Shown: positions 1,825 to 27,265 of the stretch, in pieces | Position numbering within the stretch: position 1 is the first letter of the stretch | How the letters are laid out: each line of letters opens with the position of its first letter | NCBI GenBank assembly: GCA_943350045.1 | Contig: CALQZW010000002.1 | Span: 1 to 36,744, forward strand | Length of the DNA stretch: 36,744 bases | Direction of reading: 5' to 3' | DNA from: Candidatus Nomurabacteria bacterium | GTDB lineage: Bacteria; Patescibacteriota; Minisyncoccia; Phycocordibacterales; UBA9973 | Made by a program: the position numbers and the translations under genes | Notes under the pieces: model-generated | What the model was told of the DNA's origin: nothing | The model's database searches: none | The model's input: the letters and a program-made list of their open reading frames with translations, nothing else

Positions 1825-4800
1825 ATGGAAAATTCACGTAATGCAATTCTGGTAGGGTTCTGGTGCACATTATCACTCGTGTATGCAATGACAGCTAGTG
1901 TTCCGTTTGCTCGTGCTGAGACTCTTGTTCCGCGTGATCTTCGTATATCTGAAGACACAACATGGAGTCTGGCAGGAAGCCCGTACATCGTCTCTGGAAG
2001 GCCTGTAGTGAGCTCTGGAGTCACTCTGACAATTGAGCCAGGGGTTACAGTAAAGTTTACTCAAAATGAAAATAGCGGACTGGAAGTCGCGGGAAAAATT
2101 TCCGCAGTCGGCTCTGAGAGCGACCCGATTGTCTTTACTACAATGAAAGAAAACTATCCCGGCATTTCTGAGTACAACGGAATTGGAATTCTCACAGGAG
2201 GTATTGCCGACTTTAAGCATATTAAAGTTCTTCATGCTCAATATGCGATTTACGGAACAAAATCTACTATTACTCTTGAAGACTCATTTATCGCCGACGC
2301 ATATCACGGAATGTCTGCGACAGACAGTGCTCTTACGCTCAATCGAAACACGTTCATTCGTCTTGATCGACCGGTGATTATAGACACGGGAACGGCTGGT
2401 CGGTTGAGTAATAGCAATAACACAATTACGGAAAGTCGGTACGATCCAAACGGAATTCGTATTCTCTCGGGCGTGACAGACCCGCATCAGATTGAACTAA
2501 AGAAGGACGTTCCATATATTTTTACCGGAGGTATGCAGTTCGATTCAAATTTCAGTAGATTGCTTGTGCAAGAAGGTGCTGAAATTCAAATGGCGCTTTG
2601 GAATGGAGCAGGTTCAGCTGATAGAAGTTTAAACTTTAGAAATGGGCAGTATTTAACCGTACAGGGAACAAAGGAAAACCCCGTAAAGTTTAATGGAATT
2701 ATTCGCGCAAGTTTTGGTTCAATATTGCAACTAAAACATGCCGAGCTCTCAAACTACTCAGGCGCAGTTCTAACAATTAGTCATGGGGCAAAGCTCGATG
2801 CGCAGCAGTCTCGTATATATGGCGGGGCGAGTATTGGAGTTGTGAGTATGAACGATGCGATTGTAACGCTTACCGAAACCGACATGGAAGATGTGCGTAT
2901 CGGAATTCAGGTATCAGACGGAGGAAAGGCTTCGATGCTTGCGGGGAAGATAACAGGAGCAGAGTATGCAGTGTTTTTGGCGGGAGGAGGAGAGATTAGT
3001 CTGCATAGTGCTTCTGTGACAGGAAATCAAAAAGGAATATATTCCAAGGATACATCTGCTAAAGGAGACAATACTGTACGAGTATTTCAAAGTACGATAT
3101 CCAACAACGGTACTGGTTTTGTTTTAGAAGACGCGATTCCGTTCATCTTTCAAAACACAATCGAGAACAATGGAATAGGAGCACAGGCTCTAGATGATGG
3201 ACCTGTGGTGGGAATGGAAAACAACTGGTGGGGAGATACAACTGGTCCATATAATGCAGAAACAAACTCTGAAGGACTGGGTAATTCAGTAACACAGAAA
3301 ATCGATTTTGACCCATGGCTTGGAGAGCGTGCCTTTGAGTCACCGACAGATGGTGGTTCTGACGATGGAGGCGGTGATACTGGTGGGGGTACTGACGGAG
3401 GAGGAAATGGAGATGATGGCGGAGAAGATGAAGAGACTCCTCCTGCTCTGACTCCCGTACTCCTTATTCCAGGAAACATGGGAAGTGAGCTAATTAAAAA
3501 CTACGGAGATTCTGCCGAGGCCTGGCTCAATCTTACTCGCCTTATCCTCTCACCAACAGATGCGTTTTTGAACGAACTCGCACTCCTGCCAAATGGAATA
3601 GAAGATTCTGCTCGCCCGATGAAGATTGGGGAAATGATACGATCGGTCACTCCGCCAATTGGTGATGAAGTCTCTATTTACAACAATCTGATTAAAACAT
3701 TTATCGACGCCGGATATGTCGAAGGAGAGTCCCTGTTTGTTTTTCCGTACGATTGGCGAATGAGTGTCTCGACCATTGCACCGCTTCTTGCGACGAAAAT
3801 ATATGAAATACAATCTGAAACAAATGCTCCAAAAGTGCACCTTGTGGGACACAGTATGGGTGGGTTGGTAGCAAAGCAGTATATGGCAGATTTCGGGGGC
3901 GAAGCGGTGGCCTCTGTTGCGTTCATTGGAACACCACACCTCGGATCAATGAAGGCCACGAAAATGCTTTTGTACGGAGACAGTATGGGGCTTGGTATTG
4001 GGAAAGTTAAAGTACTTAATGCAAATAGAGCAAAGACAATTTCTCAGAACATGCCGGGAGTATATGACTTACTACCGAGTAAAAAATATACCGAACTTGC
4101 TCGGGAAGCACTGTTTTCTCACTATGATTCAGAAGAAGCACACACAACTATTCTCGGGTATGATCACGAGAATACAAAAGGGTACATGGTTTCAGCTGGA
4201 AGCAATGAACAGCTCATTCCGAGGTCAGAAATTGTACATGAAGAAATCGATTCATTCTCTGCTGGAAGTATTCCCGTATACAATTTTGTTGGATGTACTG
4301 AAGGTGGACAGGATTCGGCGACGATAAGTGCAATACAACTCAAGAATCGTATGGCACTCGGTCTCGACGGCAAGAAGCGAATCAAGAGTGACTATCAACT
4401 CTTGTATACGAGTGGCGATGGAATCGTGTCGAGCCTCTCGGCTAGTAGCGTGCCGGCATCGCAAACATACATGGTGAAAGATACATCGCACACCAGCTTG
4501 CCGTCATCAAGTGGTCTAGGTTCGGTTTTACTCGCATACTATAAACAGGAAACACCTGTACTCTCTGGTGCGGTGAGTGCTATGACAACTGAATGTTCTG
4601 TCTTGGGAAAGGCAATCAGTATTCATGGCCCTGTGCATGTTTCAGTTGTAGATGCAGGTGGTAATAAAACCGAAGCTGACGCTGACGGAACGATAACTGA
4701 GGCAATTACGGGAGTGAGCTACACTCAAATCGATGACGTTACTTTTGTGTACGTTCCGCATGCTTTTACAGGAGAAATTCAAATTACTCCAAAAGAGTCT

Positions 4801-16465: not shown

Positions 16466-17986
16466 TTACATTCCTTTTATAATACGAATTTTAGCACCAA
16501 TTTCGTTGAGACGCTCGGCGATTTCTTCATATCCGCGAGTGATTGAATATACGTTGCGAAGCATGGATGTACCTTCGGCAGAGAGCATTGCAATGAGGAT
16601 GACTGCAGATGGGCGAAGTGCTGGTGGACACACAATCTGCGCTCCGCGAAGTTTCGATGGTCCTTCGATGAATGCACGGTGTGGATCTACGAGGCGAACA
16701 TTTGCTCCGAGTTTGTTGAGTTCAGTGAAATATATGGCGCGGTTTTCCCAGCTCCAGTCGTGAATGAGTGTCGTTCCTTTTGCCATCGTTGCGAGCGCTG
16801 CGAAAAATGGCAGGTTGTCGTTTTGTAGTCCTGGGAACGGAAGCGCGTGAAGTTTGTCGTTCGGTGCAACAAGTGTTGAAGGTTTTACCGTAATATCCAC
16901 GAGGCGAGTACGTCCGTTTTCAGAAAAATATTCCTTACTCACAGAGAGTTTTGCTCCCATGTGAAGAAGTTTTTCTACTTCGAGTTCGAGGAATTCGATA
17001 GGGCAGTGAGTGACGGTAAGTGTTGATTTTGTAATAAGGCCGGCAGAGAGAAAGAACATGGATTCGATAGGGTCTTCACTGTTCGTGTGTTCGACAGTCG
17101 TATCAATATGTCCTTTTCCGTGCACGGTGAGCGTTGTTGTTCCTATTCCTTCAATTTTTACACCCATTTTCTCAAGCAAGAAACACACATCTTGCACTTG
17201 GTAGTTTGGTGGGGCAAAACGGATCTGGCTGACTCCTTCGATTCCCGCCGCTGCGATTATCATATTGATAGCGCCTGTGTCGGAAGATTCATATAAAGGG
17301 AATGAAGCCGGCTTGAGTTTTCCGTGGCGGATATCGTAGGCCTGATCGAGTGTTGTGATCTTTACTCCGAACTTCTCAAGTCCGTATTTATGAGCGGCAA
17401 TAGTACGCTCTCCCATTTTACATCCTCCAGAATGCGGAAAGAAAAACGCATCGCTCCAGTGAATGAGGGCTCCAACGAAAGTAAATGAGCGGGTCTTTCT
17501 CGCAGACTCTAGATTCATTTTTGTGAAATCAAGCTTTTTGGGAGGTGTGATTTCAAGCGTGCTCTCGTCAAGCCAGCGAACTGCAACTCCAAGAGACTCC
17601 ATTATTTCTACGTAGCGATATACCTCTTCGATACGCGGAATACCGTGGAGAATAGTTTTTCCGTGGTTTACGAGCGAGGCGCAGAGCATGTTGATAGCTC
17701 CATTTTTTGAATAGTTTGTTGCAATTGAACCAGAGAGTTTTCGTCCACCTTCAATTTCAAAGTCGATGCTCTTTGAGAGGGAGAGAATCTGGCGACCAAG
17801 GATATCGCTAATTTTCGCAAGTTGAGTAACGGTAAGGTTTTGTTCGCCAGCTTCCATGCGGGCTACTGCACTCTGAGAAGTACTCAGTGCCTTTGCAAAC
17901 TCTGCCTGAGTCAGTCCGCGTTCTTCGCGTAAGTTTTTTATAAACGTTCCGATTTTTTCCTGGTCTTTGGAATGCTTTATGTTCAT
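16466..17986 (-). CDS. murA: XRE-type HTH domain fused to UDP-N-acetylglucosamine 1-carboxyvinyltransferase
   Basis: Residues about 10-70 form an HTH_XRE domain (RGLTQAEFAKALSTSQSAVARMEAGEQNLTVTQLAKI). The remainder has a MurA/EPSP-synthase fold and retains the catalytic Cys loop HSGGCKMGERT. It lies 5 nt upstream of tsaD on the same strand. Confidence 0.85.
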   Translation of the reverse strand: MNIKHSKDQEKIGTFIKNLREERGLTQAEFAKALSTSQSAVARMEAGEQNLTVTQLAKISDILGRQILSLSKSIDFEIEGGRKLSGSIATNYSKNGAINMLCASLVNHGKTILHGIPRIEEVYRYVEIMESLGVAVRWLDESTLEITPPKKLDFTKMNLESARKTRSFTFVGALIHWSDAFFFPHSGGCKMGERTIAAHKYGLEKFGVKITTLDQAYDIRHGKLKPASFPLYESSDTGAINMIIAAAGIEGVSQIRFAPPNYQVQDVCFLLEKMGVKIEGIGTTTLTVHGKGHIDTTVEHTNSEDPIESMFFLSAGLITKSTLTVTHCPIEFLELEVEKLLHMGAKLSVSKEYFSENGRTRLVDITVKPSTLVAPNDKLHALPFPGLQNDNLPFFAALATMAKGTTLIHDWSWENRAIYFTELNKLGANVRLVDPHRAFIEGPSKLRGAQIVCPPALRPSAVILIAMLSAEGTSMLRNVYSITRGYEEIAERLNEIGAKIRIIKGM

Positions 17987-18024
17987 ATTGTCTAGTATAT
18001 CATATATGATATACTAGACAATAT
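17985..18024. promoter_or_regulatory. 40-bp perfect palindrome: overlapping divergent promoters / candidate operator between murA and murB
   Basis: ATATTGTCTAGTATATCATA (17985-18004) is the exact reverse complement of TATGATATACTAGACAATAT (18005-18024). Each half carries TTGTCT, a 16 nt spacer, and TATACT with an extended -10 TG. Confidence 0.8.
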
Positions 18025-22217: not shown

Positions 22218-22601
22218 ATGAAAAATAGAAAAAGAAAGGTTCGAATCGCAGATGCGGTAGGACTTATGGAATTGATAGGACTAGCACTGCTTTCTGCAGG
22301 ATTCTGGTTCGGAGTGGGTCAGGCTCAGGTTAGCGGCCTTGGAGCATTCATATCTGCTGTAGTTGTTATTACTTCAGCAGTAATCTCCGGATACACCTCA
22401 GTCTTTGCTGAAAAAAACGGCTGGTTTATAGCATTGAGTCTCGTGCCTGTTCTTGTTGTAGGGAATGCCTTCATCTGGCGTTTTTATGTAACTGAGTTTG
22501 AAGGAGGACTCCTTCTGCTAAAGTCATTTGCGATTTCATTGTGCGAGATGTTTGTTTCGTATTTTTATTTCAAAATGATTTTTAAAGAAAAAATGGTCTA
22601 A
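22218..22601 (+). CDS. hypothetical membrane protein (4 TM)
   Basis: 127-aa hydrophobic ORF. I recognise no family. Confidence 0.55.
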   Translation: MKNRKRKVRIADAVGLMELIGLALLSAGFWFGVGQAQVSGLGAFISAVVVITSAVISGYTSVFAEKNGWFIALSLVPVLVVGNAFIWRFYVTEFEGGLLLLKSFAISLCEMFVSYFYFKMIFKEKMV

Positions 22602-22608
22602 TTAAAAT

Positions 22609-22648
22609 GAAAGAGCTGAACGTATATGATACGTCCAGCTCTTTTTTA
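22609..22648. terminator. bidirectional intrinsic terminator
   Basis: Interrupted stem AGAGCTG-A-ACGTAT / ATACGT-C-CAGCTCT (22612-22641) with flanking A and T runs. It lies between convergent genes. Confidence 0.75.
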
Positions 22649-22948
22649 ATTGATTGGAATTGCAATATAGTGGGACTCCTTTACTCCAAGTGCGTAGTTG
22701 ACTCCTTTATGTTCAATGAAGTCATGCACAAGGAAATTAATTTCAACTGACTTGTCTTTGCCGAGAAGTATAACGTTTTCATAACCCCCGTTATCTGATC
22801 TTTTGAACGAAAGATCTATTTTTGCGTTAGATAAAATTTTCTCAGTTTGGAATGTTTGCCAAGAAGTATATCCCTCTGGGTAGTAGGTAGAAAATACTTC
22901 ATCTACTATGTAGTTTGTTCCGTTTCGCGTAATCGTTTTTGTGCTCAT
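22646..22948 (-). CDS. orphan small protein (100 aa, beta-rich)
   Basis: ORF with its own promoter, TTGCCA-16-TAATAT, on the minus strand (23013-22986). No recognisable family. It lies in the AT-rich accessory stretch. Confidence 0.5.
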   Translation of the reverse strand: MSTKTITRNGTNYIVDEVFSTYYPEGYTSWQTFQTEKILSNAKIDLSFKRSDNGGYENVILLGKDKSVEINFLVHDFIEHKGVNYALGVKESHYIAIPIN

Positions 22949-23015
22949 TGGTTATTTGCTTTTTAGTGAAGTTATATTTGAGTGCATATTACAATATCTG
23001 AGGATTTTGGCAATT

Positions 23016-23031
23016 AAAAAAAAGGGGGGGG
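23016..23031. repeat. A8G8 homopolymer tract
   Basis: AAAAAAAAGGGGGGGG, read directly from the sequence. It lies 3 nt upstream of the -35 box of the minus-strand promoter for 22646..22948. Confidence 0.9.
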
Positions 23032-23314
23032 TAATGTGTACACACATATGGCGGTTCCCTGTCGAATAAGGAAATAATAGTTCAATTTTTATCCTGTAAA
23101 TAACTCTGTTGCAAAAAATATAAATTCGCAAATATACCAGAAAACGCTATTTGTCAACGAGTATTTGACGTGGAGTTCGACATGTTACATAAATTGTATT
23201 CATGTACAAAAAACGCATTGTTACTTAGGAGATATCGATTTAGTATGTGTGTACTTAAGGGTTAACTTGTGAATTAATTCTTGAGTATTTATTAGAATAA
23301 TTACTGAAATACTT

Positions 23315-23482
23315 ATGCAAGATAATCAGGAGGGTTCATACAGCGCAGATGTTCGCTGTGATAATTGTGAAATGAATGGAATAATTAACATTCCTAAGGG
23401 GACAGAAATTGTACATCATGAGTGTCCTAAATGTGCTACTCAGAAACTTAAAAAGAATCATAAGCCGATATTTTTCGCATAG
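23315..23482 (+). CDS. small zinc-ribbon protein (55 aa), not in the ORF track
   Basis: The ATG 23315 to TAG 23480-23482 ORF reads MQDNQEGSYSADVRCDNCEMNGIINIPKGTEIVHHECPKCATQKLKKNHKPIFFA. It has two CxxC pairs 21 residues apart and is followed directly by a terminator. Confidence 0.5.
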   Translation: MQDNQEGSYSADVRCDNCEMNGIINIPKGTEIVHHECPKCATQKLKKNHKPIFFA

Positions 23483-23513
23483 TTTCGGTTTGCCGCTTTT
23501 TTCGTCAGTGTTT

Positions 23514-23547
23514 AAAAAATACAGGTCAAGAAGACCTGTATTTTTTG
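23514..23547 (+). terminator. intrinsic terminator
   Basis: Stem TACAGGTC (23520-23527) / GACCTGTA (23533-23540), loop AAGAA, then T6. Confidence 0.75.
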
Positions 23548-23717
23548 TGCGCGATAGAGGATTCGGCTATTACATAGCCAGGTACTTTTCGATTTCGCTC
23601 CGCTCAATAACGAAAAGTCTTTCGAATCCTCACAGAGCGACGCAGGTCGCTCTGCCGATCTTGGTCACGACCCAAAAGAAAAACACGGCGCAAGGCCGAG
23701 TCTTTCTTTTGGGTGTG
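23548..23717. repeat. 168-170-bp direct repeat R1 (tRNA-Val 3'-end copy + structured 150-nt module)
   Basis: It starts with TGCGCGATAGAGGATTCG, the reverse complement of tRNA-Val positions 56-73. The rest matches 25561-25728 apart from four substitutions and one 2-nt indel. Confidence 0.9.
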
Positions 23718-23805
23718 AGGGAAGAATTCTTACCCCGAACTCAAAAATATGGACTAAATTCCCGTTTATCTTTGTTTTTAATAATCTAAGTATAAGGAAG
23801 ATAAA

Positions 23806-23841
23806 TAATAAAAGGTCTAATTGATTATTCAATTAGACCTT
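23806..23841 (-). terminator. intrinsic terminator of the 114-aa gene
   Basis: 12-bp perfect stem AGGTCTAATTGA (23813-23824) / TCAATTAGACCT (23829-23840), with a T-run following on the minus strand. Confidence 0.75.
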
Positions 23842-23862
23842 CTTGTTCTTTGCTGCAGAATT

Positions 23863-24207
23863 TTATATTAGTTGGATTGTTCCTCTGTATAACATAATGC
23901 TTTTTATTTCCTTGTTATCACCTTTGTAAAAATACGATTCTTGCTTTAATTTAGTATCACCAGTTCTAGTAATCGAGATATGGTATCCTCCATCAGAAAA
24001 TACTGATACTTGTACTTGACGCCCACCTTGACCAAAAGTAACTGGAGGAAAGGAGAGCTGTCCTTTGTCTGATGTAAAACTTGTTATTACGAAAAATAAT
24101 GAGTAGGGAATTTCATCACCAGAGTGATAAAAAGTAACTTTCATATTTTTTCCTAAAAGTTCTTCTACCTTAGTTATTCCAAGGAAGGTTAAGATTTTCT
24201 TATTCAT
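23863..24207 (-). CDS. orphan small protein P114 (paralog of 33703..34074)
   Basis: 114-aa ORF. It shares LG(I).....LLG+.+.+.F+H, G.YHI and a C-terminal RG...(L/I)(I/L) with the 123-aa ORF at 33703..34074. No known family. Confidence 0.6.
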   Translation of the reverse strand: MNKKILTFLGITKVEELLGKNMKVTFYHSGDEIPYSLFFVITSFTSDKGQLSFPPVTFGQGGRQVQVSVFSDGGYHISITRTGDTKLKQESYFYKGDNKEIKSIMLYRGTIQLI

Positions 24208-24312
24208 GATCGGTATATTTAATTGTTAGATATTGAGTTATCTCTATGTCGGAGAACGGCGCAGAGATAACCCAACAAATTACAATCTGAATATCAAAAA
24301 ACTATTATCACT

Positions 24313-24340
24313 ATAATAGCATAAATATATATTTCGTCAA
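24313..24340 (-). promoter_or_regulatory. promoter of P114 cassette
   Basis: Minus strand: TTGACG (24340-24335), 16 nt spacer, TATTAT (24318-24313). The roughly 100-nt 5' UTR contains the hairpin GTTATCTCT/AGAGATAAC (24237-24271). Confidence 0.5.
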
Positions 24341-24361
24341 TACATACATCACCGTAGACTA

Positions 24362-24391
24362 TTGACAGTTATACATATAATGTGATATAAT
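24362..24391 (+). promoter_or_regulatory. near-consensus sigma70 promoter
   Basis: TTGACA (24362-24367), 18 nt spacer, TATAAT (24386-24391) preceded by an extended -10 TG (24383-24384). Confidence 0.65.
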
Positions 24392-24397
24392 GTAAAT

Positions 24398-24626
24398 AAG
24401 TAAAACTACTTTGATAATACGGGCTTTGGTAAGAGCACTAGGTACACAGCGCCTGTGTTTCTAGTGCTCTTACTGAGGATCCCACTATAGTGCACATCCC
24501 ATCCGTAAAAGATTCTGTAAAAGGCATGCCAGCCAGGATGACAGATACGTAAACAGCTGACTGCCGGGAATAGTACGGAACGTTTTCGCGGATTAACCAT
24601 AAATCCCTGTCCGCGCAGGGTGCTGA
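24398..24626 (+). ncRNA. about 230-nt structured leader / candidate cis-regulatory or independent RNA
   Basis: A long helix spans 24424-24478: a 13-bp perfect stem GTAAGAGCACTAG/CTAGTGCTCTTAC, five more pairs using G-U wobbles that work only on the plus strand, and an apical 6-bp stem ACACAG/CTGTGT. Further helices are CATCC/GGATG (24500-24540) and GGATT/AATCC (24590-24604). Two mutually exclusive pairings, CGCGGA/TCCGCG and CCCTG/CAGGG, lie next to the start codon. Confidence 0.45.
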
Positions 24627-25457
24627 GTGATGAAATTAATCACCGAAAAAGGCAACGGATTTCTTTTTTCAGAAACACATGGTCACGCCGTGTATTATGA
24701 AAACCCGGGAAACAACCCCGGAAAAATTTTGAAAGTTGTAAAAAATGCTCGTCAGGAAGCTGAATGGGCAAAAACAAATTGGGGATGCGAACCTCAGGAA
24801 CCAACGGAAGCAGAAATGCTTCTACTCGAAAGGATGGCTCCATTTCGTAGGCATATAAAAACGCTTGCGATTAAGAACGCCAAGGCTTCAAGTCTTGAGT
24901 TAAAGCAATCTGGTTTTTTCAAAGTCCCTGGCGGTCTATTGTCTCGAGCAAATGGGATAACACGCAGGAAGACACATCAGGGCGAGAATAGTTGGTACTT
25001 ATTCAACTTTGAACCTGTATTAGGGGTGATTCCAAATTCACTCTACTGTACGGGATCATCGATTGATTTCGGTACGTACAATGGTAAACCAAACCCATGG
25101 TTCGGATTAATGAGTAATGAAATTGAGCCAATCATCAGGGAAGACTGGGAGCGCTTGTCTGGACGCAAGTTTAGATTGGCTTACGAGTTTACGTGGTTTA
25201 AGTCTCAAATTGAGCCCTACCAAGTTATAGGTGGCTATGACCAGCTGGATTTTCCAGCCAACACTTTCAGGGGCCTGTATCTCTTTGACCTTAGTAAGGA
25301 GAATAAAGAGAACTGGGTTGAGGAATTGCAGCCAGCAATGGGGCGTGCGTATATATGCTATGCCCACGGTAACGGTGATCACACCGTTCCGAATATAATG
25401 CTCAAAGAAATTTTTGATGGGGGAAACCTCGGAGAGGAGATATTTGTAGCGAACTAA
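24627..25457 (+). CDS. orphan protein (276 aa)
   Basis: Long ORF starting at GTG 24627 or ATG 24630, followed by a strong terminator. It has no TM segments and no motif I recognise. Confidence 0.6.
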   Translation: MMKLITEKGNGFLFSETHGHAVYYENPGNNPGKILKVVKNARQEAEWAKTNWGCEPQEPTEAEMLLLERMAPFRRHIKTLAIKNAKASSLELKQSGFFKVPGGLLSRANGITRRKTHQGENSWYLFNFEPVLGVIPNSLYCTGSSIDFGTYNGKPNPWFGLMSNEIEPIIREDWERLSGRKFRLAYEFTWFKSQIEPYQVIGGYDQLDFPANTFRGLYLFDLSKENKENWVEELQPAMGRAYICYAHGNGDHTVPNIMLKEIFDGGNLGEEIFVAN

Positions 25458-25502
25458 AATGTCATTTAAACAATGGCAGATAAGAAGAAGTAGAATATTT
25501 TC

Positions 25503-25546
25503 AGAACCAAACGAAAAGAGCCCGACTCATCGTTTGGTTCTTTTTA
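25503..25546 (+). terminator. intrinsic terminator
   Basis: 11-bp stem AGAACCAAACG (25503-25513) / CGTTTGGTTCT (25531-25541), followed by T5. Confidence 0.8.
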
Positions 25547-25560
25547 TATCTAATCGAGTG

Positions 25561-25728
25561 TGCGATAGAGGATTCGGCTATTACATAGCCAGGTACTTTT
25601 CGATTTCGCTCCGCTCAATAACGAAAAGTCTTTCGAATCCTCACAGAGCGACGCAGGTCGCTCTGTCGATCCTGGTCACGGCCCAAAAGAAAAACCCGGC
25701 GCAAGGCCGAGTCTTTCTTTTGGGTGTG
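25561..25728. repeat. direct repeat R2 (tRNA-Val 3'-end copy + structured 150-nt module), abutting the tRNA gene
   Basis: It starts with TGCGATAGAGGATTCG, the tRNA 3'-end copy lacking 2 nt. The rest matches R1 and ends exactly at the discriminator base of tRNA-Val. On the minus strand, 25711-25685 forms CUCGGC-CUUGC-GCCGGG followed by UUUUUCUUUU, a plausible terminator for the tRNA. Confidence 0.9.
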
Positions 25729-25799
25729 CGCGATAGAGGATTCGAACCTCTGACCCTCCCCACGTCAAGGGGATGCTCTACCAACTGAGCTAACCGCGC
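25727..25799 (-). tRNA. tRNA-Val (anticodon GAC)
   Basis: The reverse complement folds as a 73-nt cloverleaf: GCGCGGT-TA-GCTC-AGTTGGTA-GAGC-A-TCCCC-TTGACGT-GGGGA-GGGTC-AGAGG-TTCGAAT-CCTCT-ATCGCGC-A. CCA is not encoded. Confidence 0.9.
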
Positions 25800-25821
25800 G
25801 TCGTTCTCTTTGAACAAAACG

Positions 25822-25849
25822 AGTATACCACATATACATATAATTTCAA
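25822..25849 (-). promoter_or_regulatory. promoter of tRNA-Val
   Basis: Minus strand: TTGAAA (25849-25844), 16 nt spacer, TATACT (25827-25822) preceded by an extended -10 TG (25830-25829). It lies about 20 nt upstream of the tRNA 5' end. Confidence 0.6.
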
Positions 25850-25888
25850 TCGCCCTTTCTACCTGCTATCTGCTACTATTGCGTATAT

Positions 25889-27265
25889 ATGCGTACTGCA
25901 AAACAGATATTTAATCAGCTTCTTGCGAACACAATGCTCGCCTTGGTTACAAATGCCTTTGTGTGGTTCGCTCTTACATTCTGGGTGTTCTTGAGTACTC
26001 GTTCCGTTCTTGTTACGTCTATGATTGCTGGAACCTTTGCTGTCACAAACATGCTCGGCGCGTTTCTTTTTGGAAACATTGTAGATAAGAGAAAAAAGCG
26101 AACTGCAATGATTCTCTCGAGCGTCATGTCTTTTATTGCATATGCAATTGGAACAATTATATATTTCTCAACTCCAGCAGAAGTATTTGCAAACCCTGCG
26201 TCTCCGATATTGTGGGTACTCATTGTCATCCTTATGCTCGGAAGCGTCGCGGGAAATTTGCGTGCTATTGCCCTCAGTACGCTCGTAACAAAACTCTTTA
26301 CTGAAGATCGTGACAAGGCAAATGGAATGATTGGAATGGTAAGTGGTTTGAGTTTCTCTCTTACATCAGTGCTCAGTGGTCTGGCGATTGGATTTTTTGG
26401 AATGAATCTTGCTCTCGTGTGCGCGCTCGTTGCAACAGCGCTTGTAGTTCTCCATCTCGCATTCTTTCATTTTGATGAACCAGCAGTAGAGATTCATCAT
26501 GAAGAACATCATGAAAAAAAGTCTGGAGTGCGAACGACGATGAAAATTATTGCTTCAATCCCAGGACTCTACGGTCTCATTTTCTTTACGACAATCAATA
26601 ATTTCCTCGGAGGTGTGTTCATGGCACTCATGGATGCGTACGGCCTGTCGCTTGTTTCTGTGCAAACGTGGGGAATTATGTTTGCTGTTGTCAGCTTTGG
26701 CTTTATTGCCGGAAGTACCTATATCGCAAAGAAAGGGTTGGGGAACAAGCCACTGCGAAAACTGTTGGGTATAAACATCATTACGTGGACTACGTGCATC
26801 TTCTTTACTATCCAGCCTTCTATTATTCTACTTGCTATCGGAATGCTTATCTGGATGACGCTTGTGCCGTTTGTGGAAGCTACTGAACAGACGATTATCC
26901 AAGCCGTTGTGCCATATGCACGCCAGGGAAGAGTGTTTGGTTTTGCGCAAAGTGTAGAATCTGCCGCCACTCCTGTCACTGCCTTTCTTATCGGTCCGAT
27001 CGCTCAGTTATTCTTCATTCCGTTTATGACAACTGGAAGTGGTGTGGAGCTCATTGGCTCGTGGTTTGGGGTTGGTCCCGCTCGTGGAATCGCTCTTGTC
27101 TTTATGTCTGCTGGTACACTTGGTCTTCTTGTCACTCTTTTTGCTTTTCGTTCTAAAGCATACAAGATTCTTTCAAAGCACTATATTGAGAATACAGGTC
27201 AGAAAACAGTCGCACATGCCAGCGGTGCTAGTATGTTGTCTCCGGATGTTGTTGTGAGTGAATAG
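25889..27265 (+). CDS. MFS transporter
   Basis: 458-aa ORF with about 12 TM helices and a motif-A-like GNIVDKRKKR between TM2 and TM3. Confidence 0.8.
   Translation: MRTAKQIFNQLLANTMLALVTNAFVWFALTFWVFLSTRSVLVTSMIAGTFAVTNMLGAFLFGNIVDKRKKRTAMILSSVMSFIAYAIGTIIYFSTPAEVFANPASPILWVLIVILMLGSVAGNLRAIALSTLVTKLFTEDRDKANGMIGMVSGLSFSLTSVLSGLAIGFFGMNLALVCALVATALVVLHLAFFHFDEPAVEIHHEEHHEKKSGVRTTMKIIASIPGLYGLIFFTTINNFLGGVFMALMDAYGLSLVSVQTWGIMFAVVSFGFIAGSTYIAKKGLGNKPLRKLLGINIITWTTCIFFTIQPSIILLAIGMLIWMTLVPFVEATEQTIIQAVVPYARQGRVFGFAQSVESAATPVTAFLIGPIAQLFFIPFMTTGSGVELIGSWFGVGPARGIALVFMSAGTLGLLVTLFAFRSKAYKILSKHYIENTGQKTVAHASGASMLSPDVVVSE

Follow-up and report, generated by a model that had tools for sequence, protein, structure and literature searches.

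Structured RNAs that lie directly 5′ of one bacterial gene are known from several types of system. Autogenous operators, including the S15 and S4 pseudoknot leaders, T4 gene 32 and the DIVa element bound by LtrA in a group II intron, are tied to a single gene, can carry a pseudoknot in the ribosome-binding region, and have the encoded protein as the expected effector. Pseudoknot riboswitches such as the SAM-II, SAM-V, preQ1-II/III and fluoride classes present the 3′ pseudoknot strand as a purine run a few nucleotides (nt) from the AUG and have highly conserved junction nucleotides; SAM-II and preQ1-II/III also place the 3′ pseudoknot right against the start codon. Partner RNAs such as the IscB omega RNA (HEARO), the IS110 bridge RNA, the retron msr-msd and the noncoding RNA of DRT2 are structured RNAs of ~200 nt immediately 5′ of one gene, are sometimes part of a small mobile cassette, and can include a long hairpin with a variable apex. 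Large bacterial RNAs with two pseudoknots are rare, and most of those studied are riboswitches, ribozymes or ribonucleoprotein cores. The RNA described here resembles each of these systems in part. It forms the leader of an orphan gene in a stretch of 36,744 nt from Candidatus Nomurabacteria bacterium (GenBank assembly GCA_943350045.1, contig CALQZW010000002.1), which is called the window below.

Comparison of nine copies indicates that this leader is a conserved and previously uncatalogued RNA of ~205 nt, with a proposed fold of eight helices and two pseudoknots. As a structured 5′ leader it belongs to a known general class of RNA, but the family itself is new, and it stands beside an unannotated protein family. 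The RNA is much larger than the autogenous operators listed above, the window protein has no assigned fold or function, RNA binding by it is putative, and the host lacks ordinary Shine-Dalgarno initiation. Unlike the pseudoknot riboswitches, the motif has neither an Rfam match nor a candidate ligand, accompanies a single gene family, and is three to four times larger. Unlike the proteins of the partner-RNA systems, the window protein has no RuvC/HNH, DEDD recombinase or reverse transcriptase domain, and the RNA showed no guide-like complementarity to its flanks and no Rfam HEARO match. The parts of the transcription unit are as follows.

24362-24391, plus strand: sigma-70-type promoter, with a -35 box TTGACA (24362-24367), an 18-nt spacer and an extended -10 element TGaTATAAT (24383-24391; TG at 24383-24384, TATAAT at 24386-24391).
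24425-24449 / 24453-24477, plus strand: P1, a long hairpin with 24 pairs, one U.U mismatch and a 3-nt loop.
24483-24485 / 24490-24492, plus strand: P2, a short hairpin CAC-UAUA-GUG, 100% paired, with two of its three pairs compensatory.
24500-24545, plus strand: pseudoknot A (helices a and b and inner hairpin e), recognized by covariation.
24500-24504 / 24536-24540, plus strand: helix a, seen as CATCC/GGATG, CTTCC/GGAAG, TCTCC/GGAGA and CACC/GGTG.
24514-24518 / 24541-24545, plus strand: helix b, seen as TCTGT/ACAGA, ATCCGG/CCGGAT, ATTCA/TGAAT and CTCGT/ACGAG.
24523-24525 / 24532-24534, plus strand: helix e, closing the conserved loop AUGCCA and seen as GGC/GCC, GCC/GGC, GGT/ACC and GCT/AGC.
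24549-24578, plus strand: conserved single strand and hairpin P4, recognized by near-invariance across the nine copies.
24564-24566 / 24576-24578, plus strand: P4, CCG/CGG, swapped to CGG/CCG in locus L013.
24587-24620, plus strand: pseudoknot B (helices c and d), recognized by covariation.
24587-24592 / 24610-24615, plus strand: helix c, seen as CGCGGA/TCCGCG, CTTGGA/TCCAAG, CCTAG/CTAGG, TGTGG/CCACA and CCCAG/CTGGG.
24605-24609 / 24616-24620, plus strand: helix d, seen as CCCTG/CAGGG, CCTTG/CAAGG, CTCTA/TAGAG, CTGTG/CGCAG and CTCC/GGAG.
24630-25457, plus strand: orphan gene of 275 amino acids (aa), from ATG 24630.
25505-25546, plus strand: terminator-like hairpin GAACCAAACGA...UCGUUUGGUUC followed by UUUUU, read from the sequence, which ends the transcription unit.

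The proposed structure was evaluated on a plain MAFFT alignment (A5) of the nine sequences that had not been fitted to the structure, using 54 pairs in eight helices. Standard pairs form in 92.0% of the alignment cells, compared to 75.7% in shuffled controls and 37-43% when the partners are slid by 1-3 columns. Both sides have changed in 36 of the 54 pairs (shuffled mean 19.6), and the covariation score is 0.542, against 0.238 for shuffled and ~0.10 for slid partners. None of 500 shuffles attained the observed value on any of these measures, and each of the eight helices is supported by at least one compensatory pair. An initial interpretation made from the letters of this stretch alone (the sequence-only reading) had looked to covariation among homologous leaders as a check on its helices, and these do covary strongly. 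Such changes indicate selection for the proposed fold.

Folding energies and G.U pairs show that the RNA is read on the plus strand. The plus strand folds at -81.3 kcal/mol with z = -4.98, and none of 200 shuffled sequences folded as well, whereas z is -2.74 for the minus strand. In addition, four of the 24 pairs in P1 are G.U pairs that are workable only on the plus strand, and one of them (alignment columns 26/49) is invariant. The sequence-only reading had recognized this helix, describing about 24 base pairs (bp) at 24424-24478 with wobbles suited only to the plus strand. Across the alignment, 92.8% of P1 cells are paired and 16 of the 24 pairs have changed on both sides. The base of the hairpin, GGUAAGAG/CUCUUACY, is conserved, and the apical half changes in sequence yet remains paired. 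P2 occurs as CAC/GUG, CGC/GCG or CAA/UUG.

The remaining helices are interlocked. Because the strands occur in the order a-b-a′-b′ and c-d-c′-d′, they form two pseudoknots, A and B. The pairings near the start codon had been viewed originally as mutually exclusive (CGCGGA/TCCGCG versus CCCTG/CAGGG), like the alternative states of an expression platform. This view is contradicted by the comparison, because the two pairings share no nucleotide, are both kept in every copy, and both covary, as expected if they form together as a pseudoknot. The 6-nt loop of hairpin d is exactly the 3′ strand of helix c, and pseudoknot B is of the H-type or loop-strand kind; its geometry recalls fully paired six-nucleotide kissing loops such as TAR-TAR*. 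The purine-rich 3′ strand of helix d ends 9 nt before the AUG in the window. In pseudoknot A, the CATCC/GGATG pairing noted earlier is present and conserved, but the CUG...CAG stem thought to be nested within it has no counterpart in the other copies, and the conserved partner is instead helix b.

Pseudoknot A and P4 are separated by a conserved single strand, GUAAGAAGCUGACUG, for which the window has GUAAACAGCUGACUG and most copies have RGUAAGAAGCUGACUG. Extended to RGUAAGAAGCUGACUGCCG, it is the best-conserved single strand of the RNA, and UGACUGCNG is nearly invariant among the nine copies. Two pairings of loops with the coding region were considered and set aside. Loop AUGCCA could pair with UGGCA at codons 8-9, but L015 keeps the loop and its protein has no such N-terminal segment. 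The pseudoknot B loop GAUUAA has a complement, UUAAUC, at codons 3-4 in the window and in L001, L004 and L008. L009, L011 and L013 lack this match, which is probably accidental in such AT-rich sequence.

Known RNA families do not account for the leader. At the gathering score, Rfam 15 finds only tRNA-Val (25726-25799, minus strand) in the window, and only tRNAs reach threshold in L001, L004, L008 and L009. When the cutoff is relaxed to E ≤ 10 for positions 23200-26000, the leader yields nothing except spurious matches of microRNA precursors to P1. A thiamine pyrophosphate (TPP) riboswitch had already been doubted in the sequence-only reading, and RF00059 gives no match at the gathering threshold or at E ≤ 10. 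The similarity to the THI-box is limited to loose string resemblances; the leader lacks the P1-closed three-way junction of that class, and there are no thiamine genes nearby. A literature search found no description of the motif or its conserved string.

In addition to the window, the RNA lies directly 5′ of a related gene in L001 (protein P0002), L004 (P0003), L008 (P0004), L009 (P0006), L011 (P0005), L012 (P0007), L013 (P0008, cut by the contig end) and L015 (P0012). In all nine copies it is on the strand of the gene, the gap to the ATG is 7-11 nt, and no terminator intervenes, as is typical of a cis-acting leader. A covariance model (R1) of the nine copies gives them scores of 148-208 bits and finds exactly one per locus, always immediately 5′ of the homolog, with no second copy in the 120 kb of sequence examined. 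On these comparisons, the RNA is genetically locked to one protein family, and the leader is kept upstream of all close and most distant homologs, where the initial interpretation had suggested looking for it. Scans of JGI metagenomes and GTDB genomes based on the protein produced no further copies, and JGI and IMG/VR contained no match to a strict RNA pattern. A match to the strict pattern in a Firmicute metagenome-assembled genome (L010) lies in unrelated coding sequence and is due to chance.

Transcription of the leader likely begins at the promoter listed above, which scores 12/12 and is one of only two such sites on both strands of the 36.7-kb window. The predicted transcription start site (TSS) is near 24398, ~7 nt past the -10 box, giving a leader of ~232 nt to ATG 24630. 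Both the near-consensus promoter with its extended -10 element and the separation of about 230 nt from the start codon agree with the sequence-only reading. There is no need to invoke the alternative start GTG 24627, because relatives begin with MKLIT or MRLKT at the corresponding ATG. No terminator-like site occurs on the plus strand between 24392 and 24630. Near-consensus promoters are also present in L001 and L011, 28-40 nt ahead of P1.

Such a leader is unusual in its genomic setting. As had been observed previously, most other genes in the window seem leaderless: they lack a Shine-Dalgarno sequence, and a TAnnnT box precedes their ATG by 6-10 nt. More broadly, Shine-Dalgarno sequences are missing from nearly all genes in the window, L001, L004, L008, L009, L012 and L013, including genes internal to operons, and TAnnnT boxes ending 6-10 nt before many ATGs indicate leaderless mRNAs in the window and the related genomes. 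Because these genomes are otherwise leaderless or unstructured and free of Shine-Dalgarno sequences, a folded leader of 232 nt is likely to be an exceptional, regulated arrangement, and it would mark a gene with specially gated output. A second long leader is carried by a divergent orphan gene of 114 aa (23863-24207, minus strand), which has a promoter-like TTGACG-16-TGnTATTAT (24340 to 24313) and a leader of ~100 nt (24208-24340, minus strand) that holds an inverted repeat with 24-nt arms (24222-24245 / 24263-24286). This gene is not kept beside the RNA in other loci.

The interpretation that we hold, with moderate confidence, is that the RNA serves as a cis-acting translational operator that would be bound by the product of its own gene. 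In this model, transcription from the consensus promoter would make positions ~24398-24629 the 5′ leader of the mRNA for the 275-aa protein. Pseudoknot B would then end 7-11 nt before the AUG, within the footprint of an initiating 30S subunit, and its 3′ purine run (CAGGG, CAAGG, UAGAG or GGAG) would be held by a pyrimidine run, such that the folded form would block initiation and the open form would allow it. The effector would be the encoded protein, acting through its conserved middle domain. This protein is favored because the middle domain is common to the RNA-linked proteins and the RNA has no link to a second gene family. Parallels exist in ribosomal-protein leaders and in the group II intron protein that binds DIVa. 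The sequence-only reading had envisioned either a novel RNA that regulates in cis or one that partners the orphan protein, and the absence of an Rfam match, the conservation and the covariation are consistent with that pair of options.

The putative effector belongs to a very small protein family. Three domains can be distinguished in the window protein: an N-terminal domain (residues 1-60), a conserved middle domain (~70-200), and a C-terminal domain (205-275) with the motif CxAHGNGDHxVPN. Among 5.8 billion clusters there are two close relatives, P0002 (68% identical) and P0003 (51% identical, with an insertion of ~170 aa), and a profile search of 1.84 billion cluster representatives collected 21 proteins. 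P0004 to P0008 have residues 1-200 in common with the window protein and end in different C-termini, P0009 to P0014 have only the middle domain (~70-200) in common, and P0015, P0017 and P0022 only the C-terminal domain (205-275). Even though P0012 has no N-terminal domain, its RNA is kept, and the middle domain is the sole protein part common to all nine RNA-linked proteins.

These comparisons indicate that the domains of the family are shuffled between fused and separate genes. The N-terminus of P0015 corresponds to the C-terminal domain of the window protein, and a 288-aa open reading frame (ORF) just upstream of the RNA in L012 (3986-4852) is homologous to residues 85-191 of P0015 (blastp E = 2e-9). 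No match to the protein family was found in Pfam, NCBIfam, PHROG or PADLOC. AlphaFold2 models residues 1-200 with a predicted local distance difference test (pLDDT) score of ~90 when 21 sequences are supplied, compared to 46 with three sequences. A Foldseek search with this model of residues 1-200 against PDB and BFVD gave nothing with E ≤ 0.001. A profile search of PDB produced only non-significant matches, to DRT2 at E = 0.11 over a segment that contains no catalytic motif and to Scone-E at 0.002 with no qualifying stretch.

Several observations weigh against an autogenous operator. The protein has no recognizable RNA-binding fold or family, and the RNA is larger and more ornate than most operators of this type. 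The link between RNA and protein is not absolute, since the RNA core is absent in L014 (P0010) and L016 (P0014) even though the middle domain is present. The copies number only nine, and two pairs among them (window/L001 and L009/L015) are closely related. The TSS of the window leader is a prediction, and in L004, L008, L009, L012 and L015, where a strong promoter lies 0.7-2 kb upstream of the motif, the motif may sit inside a longer transcript. Both proteins, P0010 (708 aa) and P0014 (313 aa), have the middle domain in a different architecture, and upstream of their genes there is just a long hairpin (L014 196-243; L016 ~3855-3950) without the core; the base of the L014 hairpin, GGTAAAGG/CCTTTACC, resembles that of P1, which may be a separable module.

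Some of the evidence gathered above could also be explained by a riboswitch that senses a metabolite or an ion. Its aptamer would be composed of pseudoknot A, the GCUGACUGCCG strand and P4, with pseudoknot B serving as a translational expression platform, and the orphan protein would act on, transport or respond to the ligand. Many invariant unpaired nucleotides at the helix junctions, the compact pseudoknotted fold, the strong covariation, and the position of the 3′ pseudoknot against the start codon are all characteristics to be expected from such an RNA. Nevertheless, all nine copies precede one protein family, with no second family and no transporter or enzyme context, and there is no candidate ligand. 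Scans of JGI, GTDB and IMG/VR with the strict motif pattern found nothing elsewhere, and a variable P1 of 24 bp is atypical of an aptamer. This explanation seems unlikely when set beside control by the encoded protein.

Another explanation that we consider doubtful is that the leader, or a processed fragment of it, functions as a partner RNA that joins the protein in a ribonucleoprotein and would be required for its activity as scaffold, guide or inhibitor, much as in retron, DRT, IscB or type III toxin-antitoxin systems. RNA and protein strictly co-occur in the nine loci, and P1 stays paired while its apical sequence varies freely. The conserved N-terminal and middle module with interchangeable C-terminal modules suggests a layout that is common in defense and effector proteins. 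Against this, the RNA runs into the ORF without an intervening terminator or processing signal, and the protein bears no signature of a nuclease, recombinase or polymerase, the DRT2 match being non-significant. More specifically, RuvC/HNH, PF01548 and PF02371 were not found with Pfam and NCBIfam in the window protein and nine relatives, and there was no fold match, which leaves the locus outside the IscB and IS110 systems. No reverse transcriptase or PADLOC model matched the window protein, whereas retrons and DRTs have an adjacent reverse transcriptase with the palm motifs (YxDD). The leader also lacks the direct repeats and the terminator before the ATG that would place it with ToxIN-like type III toxin-antitoxin systems, and the only tandem repeat, 1.9 copies of 10 nt, is inside the promoter.

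The location of the unit bears on the same question, because a partner RNA and its protein might travel together as cargo of a small tRNA-Val islet. In the window, the unit sits in an AT-rich islet (GC 0.33-0.37 at 22501-24500, compared to ~0.45 elsewhere) beside tRNA-Val(GAC), whose gene occupies 25726-25799 on the minus strand. The last 20 nt of this tRNA occur three times (23546-23565, 25557-25576 and 25725-25744), and two copies of a 176-nt block (23547-23722 and 25558-25733) are 96% identical. Each block consists of the copy of the tRNA end and a hairpin-rich trailer of ~150 nt, and the two bracket a 2-kb AT-rich islet without a recombinase gene. They resemble scars left by nested or tandem integration at a tRNA hot spot. 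Homology to L001 spans exactly from the -35 box (24360) to the repeat past the terminator (25569), and the terminator hairpin is kept there with compensatory changes (GAGCACAAACGA...TCGTTTGTGCTC). A related trailer (GGTCATTACATGACC) is found at the contig end of L001.

Direct repeats flank the unit of promoter, RNA, gene and terminator in L001 and L004 also, and L004 has tRNA-Val and a decayed resolvase gene nearby. In the window, L001 and L004 the unit is at or near tRNA-Val between direct repeats. The RNA-gene pair thus looks like islet cargo in the lineage of the window. In L008, L009 and L012, by contrast, the pair resides not in an islet but in a conserved chromosomal neighborhood, where a large acetyltransferase-like protein and TrmB are followed by a strong promoter and a long gene-poor stretch. 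This setting speaks against a mobile partner RNA, as does the lack of any RNA segment complementary to the flanking repeats; a possible guide function directed at tRNA-Val or the attachment (att) repeats was discarded when inspection by eye revealed no convincing complementarity.

The strong promoter upstream of the motif, TTGACA..TATGCTAtACT, and the stretch that follows it are found in L009 (4016-4520), L015 (424-930), L012 (3274-3780), L008 (4786-5780) and L004 (8916-9210). The stretch is long and holds hardly any ORFs or none at all; (A)AGAGGAGAG boxes recur in it, and the loci have a core, CCTAGAAATnTCTTT...TAAGAGGAGAG, in common. L009 and L015 are 88% identical over 500 nt of it and then diverge across different small ORFs. 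It has no Rfam match and is absent from the window, and it may represent a second, larger noncoding RNA of the same system.

Autogenous control and a partner RNA are compatible, since a protein that assembles on its own leader would also repress its own translation, as the group II intron protein does on DIVa. A more ambitious proposal, which we rate as distinctly improbable, is that RNA and protein constitute a new self-contained ribonucleoprotein, either a defense module or an RNA-dependent mobile element. It would travel as a ~1.2-kb cassette of promoter, RNA, gene and terminator, flanked by direct repeats at tRNA-Val; its protein would have exchangeable effector domains at the C-terminus, and in related genomes it would be coupled to the larger conserved noncoding transcript.

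It is also conceivable, though with very little probability, that the leader is a processing element, either a self-cleaving ribozyme or a substrate of the RNase III or RNase P type, that yields an mRNA with a short leader or none, as would suit the leaderless translation of this organism. A structured leader of 232 nt is anomalous in an overwhelmingly leaderless genome, P1 is a near-perfect 24-bp duplex of the kind cut by RNase III, and folds with two pseudoknots are typical of hepatitis delta virus (HDV)-like and glmS ribozymes. Furthermore, the 3′ strand of P1 can pair instead with the RGUAAGA strand. However, no Rfam ribozyme model matches the leader, cleavage exactly at the AUG is unlikely because the 7-11 nt after pseudoknot B vary in length and sequence, and the window and L001 retain the alternative pairing only in degraded form.

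This alternative pairing nevertheless has some statistical backing. In seven of nine copies, the RGUAAGA strand is the complement of UCUUACY, the 3′ side of the P1 base, and substitutions on the two strands track each other in L004 and L008. The pairing joins 24469-24475 with 24548-24554 in the window (A5 columns 57-63 with 144-151). Across the alignment, 90.5% of its cells are paired and three of the seven pairs have changed on both sides. Among 500 shuffles, two reach the observed percentage paired or covariation score and 15 reach the count of double changes. In the window and L001 the complementarity is down to 4 bp. The data are consistent with a second conformation of the RNA, or a product of RNase III cleavage, whose core may be closed by this helix.

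The same complementarity sheds light on a set of short repeats. GTAAR occurs six times in 235 nt (24392, 24400, 24429, 24505, 24517 and 24549), compared to 0.44 expected from its frequency in the window. The sequence-only reading was accurate regarding the count and positions of these GUAAA-type repeats, but only the copies at 24429 and 24549 are conserved, and these are explained by the complementarity of the RGUAAGA strand to the P1 base. The copies at 24392 and 24400 fall in the non-conserved 5′ end.

The notion of a functionless structure that an AT-rich islet produced by chance draws on nothing but the general fact that single sequences fold plausibly, and it is refuted by the covariation test, given that the RNA is conserved beside proteins 37-69% identical, with compensatory changes in every helix.

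The RNA is of interest for the gating of translation on long leaders in organisms whose mRNAs normally lack them. It has been seen only in a few metagenomic genomes that use leaderless translation free of Shine-Dalgarno sequences. With one RNA, one protein, and compensatory mutants that can be designed, it also offers a tractable entry to the function of the protein.

A few other features of the window deserve mention. Just 3′ of the 114-aa gene, a hairpin of 13-15 bp at 23810-23843 (AAGGTCTAATTGA...TCAATTAGACCTT) has T-runs on both strands and resembles a bidirectional terminator, and 21-nt sequences related to it occur at 22583 and 23067. In the AT-rich stretch left of the tRNA-end repeats, a 55-aa ORF (23315-23482) encodes a zinc-ribbon-like orphan with two CxxC pairs, for which only sub-threshold matches to Pfam zinc-ribbon families were obtained. 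At 17985-18024, a perfect palindrome of 40 nt (tattgtctagtatatcatatatgatatactagacaata) fills the gap between the divergent genes for MurB and a MurA-like protein fused to a helix-turn-helix (HTH) domain. It gives a -10-like box to both leaderless starts, and a similar arrangement is present in L001.

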